64,000 nucleotides of DNA, taken from the NCBI GenBank assembly GCA_038867615.1, contig JAWBYA010000002.1, positions 128,001 through 192,000 on the forward strand. The letters are read 5' to 3'. The DNA is from Sulfolobales archaeon. GTDB lineage: Archaea; Thermoproteota; Thermoprotei_A; Sulfolobales; AG1. Within the stretch, counting starts at the first letter, position 1. Each line of letters opens with the position of its first letter. The translations under genes and the position numbers were made by a program. Positions 20,731 through 64,000 of this stretch are shown in pieces. The notes under the pieces are model-generated. The model saw nothing but the letters and a program-made list of their open reading frames with translations, searched no databases and was not told the origin of the DNA.

Positions 20731-21009
20731 GGGCTGTTTTCTTTTTGATTTTCACTTAAAAGTTTAAGCTTTGAATAGTATTGTTTCTGGTGATGAGTTG
20801 GTCTCCATATTGACTCTGGGTGGTGATGGGAGCAATGCTCCAAGCCATCCAGGGGATGATCTCTTAAACCTAGATGGGAGCCACGTGCCGTTTGGCTCGA
20901 CGGCCGCCCATGAACCCATGGGGATAAAGAGATCCCTGTGGGCGAGGTTGAAGTCCCTGGATATAAAAAGAACATCAAATAAAATCAAAGAATATCCAGG
21001 GACAAACGG
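20731..21009 (+). mobile_element. Non-autonomous tnpB-derived mini-element, family A copy 1
   Basis: Starts GGGCTGTTTTCTTT and ends GACAAACGG; core CTAGATGGGAGC..GTGCCGTTTGGCTCGAC; 12-bp inverted repeat 20953-20964/20992-21003; homologous to the 25107 and 63549 copies. Confidence 0.85.
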
Positions 21010-21025
21010 GATCCCGGTATATGCT

Positions 21026-22756
21026 TTGAGGATAGTTTCCCTCAGGCTTCTCGCTGTATTCTCTATATTGTTCGCATTGCTGGTTAGTTTGAGGGTTCTG
21101 GCTCCTCCTGGTGTTATAGGGCTTGTTATAGATCTTTGTTCGATGTTGCTAGCTATGGTTTTGATCTTTATGGCCCTTAGGTCTCATGGCTATTCGGTAC
21201 GGGTTTTTCTATGTCCTGATATATCGTCGATTGTTATTGCATCTATATATTCCTTCTTATTCGGTGGGTATGTTCCGATCATGATCTATTTATTCGCGGT
21301 CCTCATGGTTGTATCGTCGTCCTATGTTGAGGATATCCTTGGGCATGTGATAATGATCCCAAGGATCCAGGCTGGCCAGGGGTTGATCGGGGGTGGTCCA
21401 GGGGCTAGGGTTAAGCTATACCCAGGGGTTATTATAAGCGATGATTCGGTGATATCGAGAGGCTCTATAGTTGTTAGGGAGCCCTTCATATCGGATTTAA
21501 GATCCTTTAGGGATGTGGGGGATCTCGTGCTAGGGCTTTCGAGCGTGGAGTCGGGATCCTCTGAAGCGACAGTGATTAGCAGGGGATCCATTATATCGAA
21601 CAGCTATAGAGAGGTCTTATCACTCTCGGCAAGGGTATCGGCGTTATTCTCCACAGCTGCCTATCTAGTATCAATACCGGTAATGATCCTAGCCCCTGGG
21701 CTGAGTACAGTTGCAATATCGCTAATAGTACCCTCAGCACCATATGTAGTTTCGCTCTATCTCTTTAGAAAGGCATCTGATCTCGCTAGAAACGGTATAA
21801 TCTCCTGGAACCCTATAAGGGCTTCTGAGAAGATCTGTAAGGCTTCTGAGAGCTATATAGATGCAGACGTAGCCCTCTACTCAGACGCACAGGGAGAAAC
21901 ACTGCTAAAGCCCAGGGGATCGCTGAAACAAGAGGATCTTCTAAGAATAGCATGCATAGCGGGAAACATAGAGAGCATTAAGGGGATGTGTAAGGGCTAT
22001 GAGGGATACCCAACAGAATATAGGGTTATTAAGAGAGAAAGCAATATAGCGATCCTGGAGGATAGAAGAACAAGGCTGAAGATCTGTGTAGCATCACCTC
22101 AGGAGGCGGAGCTCTATGGATTTATGAGCAGCATATCACCAATAGAAGATCCCGACACGGTGTGCAGAGGTAAGCTGTATGTTATTTCAACCAGGTATGA
22201 GGTTCTAGGCTACATATGCTCTGGAAGATCCTTATCCATGTCAAACCTACTCACGATAGCAAGGATCTCTAAGGCTAAGAAGACAATCCTTGTACTCGAC
22301 ACAGAGAGCATAAAAACCCTTGAAACCTCTGGAGAGGAGGTTAAAAAGATCCTGGGCCAGGTTGATCTAATGCTTAGGAGGCAGGGACAGAGAGAATCAT
22401 GCGCAGAAGTCCCCCGCGAAAGATCCCTAGTGATAGCCAGAGGTCCTAGGATTGAGGCCTGTGAAAATACCATCTATGTAGTGGATCCTTCGATAGCTGC
22501 TAACAAATACGCGGATACCAAAGCAAGCCTAGCTAGGGGCGCGGCTATAACCCTGAGGAGAGATCTAGTATGGCTTGAGAGAGCGCTCAACCTATGCTCA
22601 CGCTGGAGAAAAGATCTAGCATCGATAGCCTTAACATACATAGTGCTGAGAGGAGCCGGTGCTGTGTTATCCATATCCACAGGGATCATGTGGGCCCAGT
22701 ATATCTTCGAGATCGTGGGTTTAATAATATCTATATTCAGGATCTATAGCCTCTAG
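21026..22756 (+). CDS. Degenerate P-type (P1B-like) ATPase homolog, membrane protein
   Basis: TM helices, actuator-like LYPG.II..D.VI.RG segment, ARNGII...A.EKI then YIDADVAL at the FDKTGTLT position. The ORF-track start at 20771 lies inside the mini-element; TTG 21026 is more plausible. Confidence 0.6.
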   Translation: MRIVSLRLLAVFSILFALLVSLRVLAPPGVIGLVIDLCSMLLAMVLIFMALRSHGYSVRVFLCPDISSIVIASIYSFLFGGYVPIMIYLFAVLMVVSSSYVEDILGHVIMIPRIQAGQGLIGGGPGARVKLYPGVIISDDSVISRGSIVVREPFISDLRSFRDVGDLVLGLSSVESGSSEATVISRGSIISNSYREVLSLSARVSALFSTAAYLVSIPVMILAPGLSTVAISLIVPSAPYVVSLYLFRKASDLARNGIISWNPIRASEKICKASESYIDADVALYSDAQGETLLKPRGSLKQEDLLRIACIAGNIESIKGMCKGYEGYPTEYRVIKRESNIAILEDRRTRLKICVASPQEAELYGFMSSISPIEDPDTVCRGKLYVISTRYEVLGYICSGRSLSMSNLLTIARISKAKKTILVLDTESIKTLETSGEEVKKILGQVDLMLRRQGQRESCAEVPRERSLVIARGPRIEACENTIYVVDPSIAANKYADTKASLARGAAITLRRDLVWLERALNLCSRWRKDLASIALTYIVLRGAGAVLSISTGIMWAQYIFEIVGLIISIFRIYSL

Positions 22757-62994: not shown

Positions 62995-63245
62995 GGCCAG
63001 TCAAAAAGCATATAGTGGTAACCTAACCTTTTAGTCTACATCTAATATTTACAGAATAGCTTTGTATAGACAATCATATATGGATCCTGTTATGTTTTAT
63101 CCAACTAAATATATCTCGATATGAATCTATATAACATAACCTCATTACAAGATATATCATCTCGCAGATCTGAGGAAACCAATCACCGCATTATTATTCT
63201 ATATAATGTCGTTTGGCATACTCCCCAGATCTCTGATAATGTGAT

Positions 63246-64000
63246 CTATGAGAGGAAAATAATAAGAGCAACCCTAAGGCTTGTTACAATATACCCATGG
63301 ATCTTGAAGCAACGACCAGGGATCACCATGATAGGACTTGGAGGATTGCTGGGAGAGCTGTTAATACGGGACTTGGAGACCTGTTGAGAAGGGCTGCGAT
63401 GGATATAGCTTATCTTGATGATGCTAGAGGTTCCGAGAGATTTTCTAGCTGAGGATAGCATAATCATAGAACTAGAGCTCACGACCTCTGGAGATATGGT
63501 TGATCAGGACCTCGTGATAGGTGTTGGTAGGTATTATGACTGGCAGATCCGTTTGTCCTCGGATGTTCGTTCCAATCACTCTATCTTTATTCATGGTCAT
63601 ATCCAGGGACTTCAACCTCGCCCACAGGATCTCCAACCCTGTAGTGTCGTGAGTAATCATCGATCCAAACGGCACACGACTCCCATCTAGGGCTTGTGTT
63701 GAGAGACACGCACCGGGAACAATCTATCTCAAAGCTAAAGCCTATAAATACCCCTAGGCATCTATGGCGAGGCAGCCCTCGGGCATGCCGTCCCCAAAAC
63801 CTATCAACCTCCATGTATATCAAAGAAAACAGCCCATGTATAGGGGGTTGGTTCTAAAACCTTCTCCAGTCTCTCTAGGATTGCTAGTGGGTGTGCATAC
63901 TCCCTTGGGCTGTCTCTTTTATCGGGACTGTTATCCTTATATCGCCGCTTCTCTGGAAGTGGAGTATTAATACTATCTCCTTTATACTATCCATTATCTC
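63246..64000 (-). pseudogene. Probable decayed gene interrupted by family A copy 3
   Basis: Removing 63549-63832 restores an open frame ..EKVLEPTPYTW|DLPVIIPTNTYHEV..; other stops and shifts remain. Confidence 0.3.
63549..63835 (-). mobile_element. Non-autonomous tnpB-derived mini-element, family A copy 3
   Basis: Minus strand starts GGGCTGTTTTCTTTG, has TATTTATA (63743-63750), core CTAGATGGGAGTCGTGTGCCGTTTGG, and ends CATCCGAGGACAAACGG. Confidence 0.85.

Follow-up and report, generated by a model that had tools for sequence, protein, structure and literature searches.

The closest published precedent for the elements described here is RNA-257(1-4) of Sulfolobus (Saccharolobus) solfataricus, a set of paralogues that are transcribed from intergenic positions and have their own consensus-like promoters. 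Their core is homologous to distal coding sequence of a transposase gene (orfB/tnpB), which belongs, together with a resolvase gene, to an ISC1904-family element (Maertens et al. 2013, PMC3674436). In that paper, which was published before TnpB guide RNAs were known, the transcripts are described as antisense regulators of one mRNA and their promoters are ascribed to point changes. Palindrome-associated transposable elements (PATEs) are gene-less IS200/IS605 derivatives that often encode TnpB guide RNAs (omegaRNAs) and need TnpB in trans (Meers et al. 2023 preprint, PMC10055086). IS607 elements insert at GG without duplication and prefer (G)GG, and approximately left end (LE) 20-59 together with nonspecific flank suffices for their synapsis (PMC6188088). 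For one IS607 TnpB family, a target-adjacent motif (TAM) of TGGG and a scaffold ending in UCGG are reported (preprint 10.1101/2023.11.20.567912); RAGATH-18 is a bacterial IS607 guide-RNA family (PMC11061315). Here we describe three dispersed, gene-less cassettes in a 64,000-nucleotide stretch of a Sulfolobales archaeon genome (the window, C2:128001-192000 of the 2.22-Mb, 28-contig assembly G000, ~46% G+C, completeness 94%) that are probably non-autonomous IS607-family derivatives carrying a promoter and a predicted TnpB guide-RNA scaffold.

A first-pass annotation, made from the sequence alone, had pointed out the cassettes, and that observation is confirmed. All three lie at the coordinates and on the strands it gave (Table 1) and have the sharp ends GGGCTGTTTTCTTT ... 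GAC(A/G)AACGG; the left junctions are T, A and T followed by GGG in copies 1, 2 and 3, and the sequences 3′ of AACGG differ as quoted. The TATA box that it had claimed reads GTATTTATAG in copies 2 and 3, and the aligned place in copy 1 reads TTAAAAGTTTAAGC. The left-end 14-mer GGGCTGTTTTCTTT occurs three times in the window with at most one mismatch (0.00 expected from 100 shuffles), as does a right-end stem–loop pattern closing in GGACRAACGG (0.00 expected). A three-way alignment has a mean column identity of 71% and abrupt limits, with GGGCTG.. as the left one and ..AACGG as the right one. As had also been stated, the window contains neither tnpB nor tnpA: the five genomic places that match PF07282 (the TnpB zinc-ribbon domain), the single PF00239 place and all tblastn matches lie elsewhere, and PF01797 has no match. 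The conserved RNA of copy 1 begins ~50 nt further 5′ than the core described at first and includes an extra covarying hairpin. The earlier interpretation as guide-only TnpB units is partly supported, with its anatomy and family assignment supported. Of the proposal that these are promoter-driven, stand-alone guide-RNA genes, the anatomy holds, while no window copy combines a perfect promoter with an intact scaffold.

The window copies belong to a large family. Searching the genome with copy 3 returned 51 matches, and blastn with all three copies found 55 places, 24 of them occupied by full cassettes (280-350 bp). When the cassette 3′ half was made into an iterated profile, it matched 97 times, with the right end included in 60 and many of the matches being fragments; a left-end profile located 28 left ends. 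Structurally distinct deletion forms coexist. The long form keeps a 54-nt 5′ hairpin that the short form, represented by window copies 2 and 3, does not have; a third has a single, shorter left end (window copy 1) resembling that of the complete element L051, described below; and double-left-end cassettes also occur. A full cassette at C1:10696-11036 precedes a tnpB of the other lineage in this genome (C1:11364-12746, a 460-aa frame) by ~330 nt and points the same way.

Two of the five PF07282 places have the cassette core directly downstream. The parent in the same genome is a tnpB element, E1 (C1:783-2283, -), which is ~1.5 kb long and consists of a left end, a TATA box, a short hairpin and tnpB. 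Similarity between E1 and the cassettes is confined to the first ~64 nt and the last 146-199 nt of E1, and the cassettes are therefore internal-deletion derivatives, in which a tnpB element's left end, with its TATA box, is fused to the last 145-195 nt of that element. The joining of promoter to scaffold by internal deletion had been proposed on first inspection, as had the presence of a crenarchaeal TnpB tail; the tnpB frame of this genome (C1:751-2085, -) indeed ends in ...LILDGSPMPLGSTAAHEPTGIKRSLWARLKSLDETMNEYKMIGMNIQGQTV, as the cassettes translate, and a TnpB homolog of the cassette lineage is present. Its product, P0001 (445 aa), scores 43 bits against PF07282 (cut-off 26.3) and 56.9 against TIGR01766 (cut-off 32), and the motifs AVDVNENN, VLEDLG and HRDVVA are legible in it, with their assignment to RuvC being our own reading. 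A search of solved structures gave only a weak match to Cas12f1 (E = 0.00023). Homologs of P0001 occur in records named Desulfurococcaceae archaeon AG1, in a Sulfolobales archaeon metagenome-assembled genome and in others. The P0001 frame (L009:751-2085, -, equivalent to G000 C1) has no stop inside the element; it stays open over the whole RNA scaffold, past the right end and into flanking sequence, and the C-terminus therefore depends on the insertion site.

The complete element L051, found in a relative, carries the same ends as the cassettes and comprises a left end, an IS607 transposase, tnpB, the RNA and a right end. Its left end is GGGCTGTTTTCTTTTTGAT..GTTTATAAGC, also given as cagGGGCTGTTTTCTTTTTGAT..GTTTATAAGC, and its right end ..CCAGGGACAAACGG. 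The 213-aa transposase reaches 232.9 bits against NF033518 (cut-off 110) and combines a PF12728/PF00376 helix-turn-helix (HTH) with a PF00239 resolvase domain; the 409-aa TnpB scores 111.5 against NF040570 (cut-off 100), and its stop codon falls inside the terminal loop. Elements of ~1.9 kb with a serine-type tnpA and a tnpB in G123 and G088 (another family of the order) close with the same right end, GTAGGGACAAACGG, and in a third genome a 263-bp cassette consists of the left end, the TATA box and the RNA. In the present genome, GGG opens 24 of 28 left ends; among right ends with a score of at least 70 bits, 31 of 41 close with GG. The base preceding GGG is T in 10, A in 9, G in 5 and C in 4 cases (n = 28), and position -4 is weakly T/A. 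With GG at both boundaries and a complete relative with the same ends that encodes an IS607 transposase and tnpB, the IS607-like character first suggested for the ends stands. No terminal inverted repeats are present in the three window copies (left end GGGCTGTTTTC, right-end reverse complement CCGTTTGTCC), and no target-site duplication was found at any junction of the window copies or of the right-end and left-end sets. A classical miniature inverted-repeat transposable element (MITE) is thereby excluded, and the term applies in its loose sense only. Membership in the PATE type (IS200/IS605, Y1) was likewise rejected: the Y1 transposase domain PF01797 has no match in the genome (assembly 94% complete), and the autonomous counterpart uses a serine transposase. 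The serine recombinase on C23 was set aside as a candidate transposase; its frame opens at the catalytic domain with no N-terminal HTH, which we read as the resolvase/invertase type.

The retained 3′ part encodes a structured RNA. A covariance model, R1 (148 positions, 29 pairs, four helices named by eye), finds it across all 13 families of the order, in 96 of the 151 genomes sampled. In an alignment of 38 sequences, each from a different locus, paired cells make up 95.6% versus 79.3% in shuffles, compensatory changes on both sides affect 19 of the 29 pairs (140 cells), and the covariation score is 0.426 versus 0.05-0.10 with slid partners; 0 of 500 shuffles reach any of these measures. This alignment (A3) was fitted to R1, which favours the structure, while that of the upstream hairpin (A4) and its structure were unfitted: RNAalifold, run on a plain MAFFT alignment of ~70 nt upstream, predicts a 5′ hairpin in which 11 of 12 pairs show compensatory changes. 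The covariance-model check put forward for the core thus returns a structure with covariation across genomes. The scaffold measures ~195 nt, or ~145 nt in the short form. At the best-hit loci of other genomes (n = 29), the RNA is preceded by a full tnpB in 11, a truncated one in 2, only a tail in 15 and none in 1. In E1 and E3, and also in L051, L150 and L151, it sits at and overlaps the tnpB 3′ end and ends at the right end. Searching the whole window against Rfam 15 at gathering thresholds returned a tRNA only, and the parent element, searched with E up to 5, gave three chance-level matches (E at least 2.3). Copy 1, where the profile match begins at C2:148816, scores 133.1 bits with R1 and keeps 26 of the 29 pairs, and its minimum-energy fold is the consensus (z = -6.15). 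Copy 2 scores 145.5 bits and keeps 25 pairs (fold z = -1.82), and copy 3 scores 132.7 bits with 25 pairs kept, 19 of them Watson-Crick, and is eroded by transitions.

Upstream of the scaffold, conservation in the left half of the cassette peaks at the TATA columns (GGGTATTTATA), with values of 0.9-0.99 versus 0.45-0.75 around them, and 20 of the 24 full cassettes read TTTA[TC]A at this place. In other genomes a TATA-like word lies 59-105 nt upstream of the R1 start in 11 of 15 tail-only loci, a count made with no chance control, and these words fall 10-50 nt before the 5′ hairpin.

Comparison with related genomes, made between species at 80-95% identity, indicates movement. Of two genomes of the same genus, G074 has copy 1 and G054 lacks it at the orthologous site, and copies 2 and 3 are missing from the corresponding sites of both. 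Conversely, eight cassettes carried by G054 and G074 are lacking in the present genome, where 2-27 nt separate their flanks, and two or three other cassette sites are common to the genomes compared. The empty site of copy 1 in G054 reads cttGGGGGatcccggtatatgc / cttGGGGGatcc / cttGGGGGatcccgg. For copy 3, the empty site in G074 is tataGGGatctgcc (tataGGGatctg), which fits a GG crossover, and that in G054 is acatGGGGatctgcc (acatGGGGatctg). Among 8 further empty sites the joint is GG in 2 and GTGG in 1, the rest being too diverged. A GG crossover thus accounts exactly for some empty sites; others differ from its prediction by one G, and the copy 2 site disagrees with it.

An unrelated 349-bp repeat (window 20363-20711, +) lies 19 nt upstream of copy 1 and is absent together with it at the G054 site. 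With blastn, 81 pieces of it are found in the present genome, and dozens in genomes of the same genus. Its 3′ half matches the 3′ ends of TnpB genes of another lineage (C1:12511-12701, within the tnpB at C1:11364-12746, and C1:51554-51745), and it is probably a second family of mini-elements bearing a guide RNA.

The sequence 3′ of each right end is the presumed guide. Second genomic targets with up to 2 mismatches gave scattered matches only, at about the estimated chance level. Taken as 16-mers, the three window guides have 4, 11 and 13 matching stretches in viral contigs, none of which extends more than 2 nt beyond, and we judge these matches to be chance, the size of the viral collection not being stated. 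A candidate viral target of the copy 3 guide was also rejected: TGGG precedes the 16-mer in three contigs of the same context, but these have 55-58% G+C and diverge right after it. In the genome, 41 of 41 guides match their own flank only, an outcome that the first-pass annotation had itself equated with ordinary MITE maintenance. Guides of this kind fit ordinary transposon maintenance, and there is no sign of a second function.

How such a cassette would arise and persist can be outlined from these features. Internal deletions removed tnpA and tnpB and spared the left end with its archaeal TATA promoter and the last 145-195 nt, the structured, predicted TnpB guide-RNA scaffold that ends at the right end ..GGACAAACGG. 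Archaeal transcription starts ~25 nt downstream of the TATA box. Initiation at the retained promoter would accordingly fall ~25 nt downstream of it, and the transcript would pass through the scaffold into the flank. A TnpB encoded elsewhere in the genome would bind this transcript, with 16-20 nt of flank serving as the guide; after excision, the complex would cleave the vacated site (..NGGG and flank), and the cassette would be restored by repair off a sister chromosome. Movement would need an IS607 transposase in trans, none of which is intact in the assembly. Function as guide RNAs in trans would be plausible; what the sequences show is the deletion anatomy, the ends held in common with a complete IS607-type element, the RNA structure and the presence or absence of cassettes between species.

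A number of observations weigh against it, and several of them concern the window copies themselves. The TATA place of copy 1 is TTTAAG versus TTTATA, is 2 nt short of the L051 TATA box and contains no TTTA[TC]A; copies 2 and 3 are without the 5′ hairpin; the minimum-energy fold of copy 3 is not the consensus and is no better than shuffles (z = -0.51). Three copies of the family keep just 20 of the 29 pairs. Within this genome, covariation among 25 copies is not above chance (88.1% paired versus 87.7% shuffled) because the columns hardly vary, and RNAalifold on the within-genome alignment missed the terminal stem. Individual copies look as if they are drifting, with selection visible between lineages and not within this genome. 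The protein partners are few. P0001 scores 85.3 against NF040570, under the cut-off of 100, and its zinc ribbon reads CPIH..C (CxxH..C) versus CPFC..CPKC in the L051 TnpB; the second tnpB of the lineage, in E3 (C2:203164-204656), is frameshifted and the third is cut by a contig end (C7:1-561), which leaves P0001 as the one certainly intact copy. The IS607-type tnpA survives only as remnants of 41 and 20 residues, 65% identical, at C7:65739-65980 (-). Copy 2 corresponds in two relatives (L114:1900-1940, L115:1890-1930) to GTAAC, a site with no GG that a simple GG crossover does not predict, and G-run lengths at the empty sites differ by one in G054. Each of the 41 guides, window copies included, has its 16 leading nucleotides once in the genome, in its own flank. 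Finally, a search for sequencing runs listed no RNA data set containing this stretch, and four metatranscriptome runs gave 0, 0, 21 and 0 reads over window:19000-27000, none of them on a cassette and too few to inform either way. The tnpA remnants sit ~1.4 kb from a cassette at C7:67378-67715.

Part of this list can be read as a sign that the cassettes are passive relics, dead or transposase-dependent mini-elements whose RNA region persists as a right end or through youth and yields no functional guide RNA. The flat within-genome covariation, the eroded copies, the lack of an intact tnpA beside one certainly intact tnpB and the many fragments among the 97 profile matches all agree with such an account. 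We nevertheless regard it as unlikely, since conservation of the TATA box equals that of the RNA core, the distinct deletion forms, whether long or short and with one left end or two, have all retained the promoter and the whole core, and this architecture is also seen in other genera and other families of the order. The cassettes, moreover, keep far more DNA than published IS607 synapsis needs (PMC6188088). Conservation through the coding of a TnpB C-terminal tail, which would make the cassettes tnpB pseudogene fragments, deserves next to no weight: the core does translate to such a tail, with the frame open in many copies, yet base pairs change in a compensatory manner, the copies differ by indels of 4, 5 and 7 nt, no start codon context is present and the cassettes have defined transposon ends.

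Host use of the cassettes has also to be considered. RNA-257(1-4), promoter-driven and regulating an mRNA, offers a precedent (PMC3674436) for exapted RNA genes or mobile promoters, whose transcripts would act on host genes as antisense RNAs, by TnpB-guided regulation or by read-through into downstream genes. Between same-strand open reading frames (ORFs), 16 cassettes are co-oriented with the genes versus 4 opposite, with 12 more in divergent and 7 in convergent regions, and copy 2 ends 69 nt upstream of a same-strand DUF359 gene. This orientation count rests on crude gene calls (ORFs of at least 100 aa) and small numbers, however, the neighbouring genes have no common function, no guide has a second match in the genome and the viral matches of the window guides stop 0-2 nt past the 16-mer, so that we consider exaptation quite improbable. 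There is a similarly slim chance that the cassettes form a dispersed trans-acting repertoire, with 40-60 distinct guides for one or two TnpB genes, partly adopted by the host and tuning neighbouring or complementary genes as RNA-257 does. This proposal invokes a genome that lost its IS607 transposase and cassettes co-oriented upstream of genes (16 to 4); if true, such a repertoire would be an early stage on the route from transposon guide RNA to host regulator. We keep gene-less IS607-family derivatives with a promoter and a predicted guide-RNA scaffold as the best explanation.

Table 1 Features of the three cassettes in the window (positions are those of the window).
Feature	Position	Strand	Details
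Cassette copy 1	20731..21009	+	279 bp, single-left-end form
Left end, copy 1	20731..20769	+	TATA-equivalent GTTTAAGC at 20762-20769
Predicted omegaRNA scaffold, copy 1	20816..21009	+	5′ hairpin 20816-20855, core 20862-21008, right end ..GGACAAACGG
Presumed guide, copy 1	21010..21029	+	flank GATCCCGGTATATGCTTTGA; by position alone
Cassette copy 2	25107..25401	-	295 bp, short form without 5′ hairpin
TATA box GTATTTATAG, copy 2	25288..25297	-	
RNA core and right end, copy 2	25107..25250	-	
Presumed guide, copy 2	25087..25106	-	TTGACTGAAATCCTATAGTG; by position alone
Cassette copy 3	63549..63835	-	287 bp, short form
TATA box GTATTTATAG, copy 3	63742..63751	-	
RNA core and right end, copy 3	63549..63698	-	eroded
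Presumed guide, copy 3	63529..63548	-	ATCTGCCAGTCATAATACCT

The window also holds a tRNA gene (20192-20275, +; 48 bits with Rfam), at which four metatranscriptome reads have loose ends that do not fit from 20245 and 20278; these reads may come from a related tRNA locus or from another strain.

Set beside the known systems, the cassettes share with RNA-257 a promoter-driven RNA taken from the 3′ end of an element with a resolvase and a transposase gene, and the RNA described here likewise closes ~1.9-kb tnpA-tnpB elements. They differ in being fusions with the element left end that retain both transposon ends and number ~60 copies, a comparison made with RNA-257 by description only. PATEs resemble them in being non-autonomous and gene-less with left and right ends and in the logic of their maintenance, whereas PATEs are bacterial, moved by Y1 (HUH) enzymes and bounded by hairpins and the present cassettes have IS607-like ends (PMC10055086). 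With IS607 TnpB/omegaRNA systems (Zedaveinyte et al. 2023 preprint 10.1101/2023.11.20.567912; Chen et al. 2018, PMC6188088) they share GG at both ends, with no duplication seen at the junctions. There the TGGG target is also the TAM and the scaffold ends ..UCGG, while the cassettes have an NGGG junction and end ..ACGG (10.1101/2023.11.20.567912); the published IS607 systems are bacterial, some with a group I intron (10.1101/2023.11.20.567912; PMC6188088).

Several archaeal elements invite the same comparison. ISC1733 is an element of IS605/IS607 type. SMN1, a 320-bp non-autonomous element of S. islandicus, is mobilised by the ISC1733 transposase and, compared by description only, is similarly a gene-less Sulfolobales mobile element of ~0.3 kb that depends on a transposase in trans (PMC3718332). 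Sense overlapping transcripts (sotRNAs) cover the 3′ end of IS1341-type tnpB genes, Pyrococcus has transcribed intergenic repeats resembling tnpB 3′ ends, and a truncated 120-bp remnant was suggested to persist owing to its RNA (Gomes-Filho et al. 2015, PMC4615843). These RNAs are euryarchaeal and of another family, and no promoter consisting of a B recognition element (BRE) and TATA box was found upstream of the haloarchaeal ones (PMC4615843). Our literature search, outside which lay supplements and many subscription papers, found no description of the present RNA family or of the cassettes in the present lineage. Even so, the novelty first attached to the cassettes was overrated, given RNA-257 (PMC3674436) and the gene-less guide-RNA derivatives of bacterial insertion sequences (PMC10055086). 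What is new here is the explicit anatomy of the promoter-scaffold fusion, the IS607 affiliation, the order-wide distribution and an RNA family, supported by covariation, that is absent from Rfam.

The picture of TnpB biology remains unchanged, as the guides point only at their own insertion sites, which is what the published homing and maintenance model predicts. The cassettes provide a clean sequence-level example of an IS607-type element that sheds its genes and keeps its promoter fused to the guide-RNA scaffold. With no Rfam match at the thresholds used and strong covariation, the RNA family could be curated, and the RNA-257 paralogues and SMN1 would be re-read as mini-transposons bearing guide RNAs.

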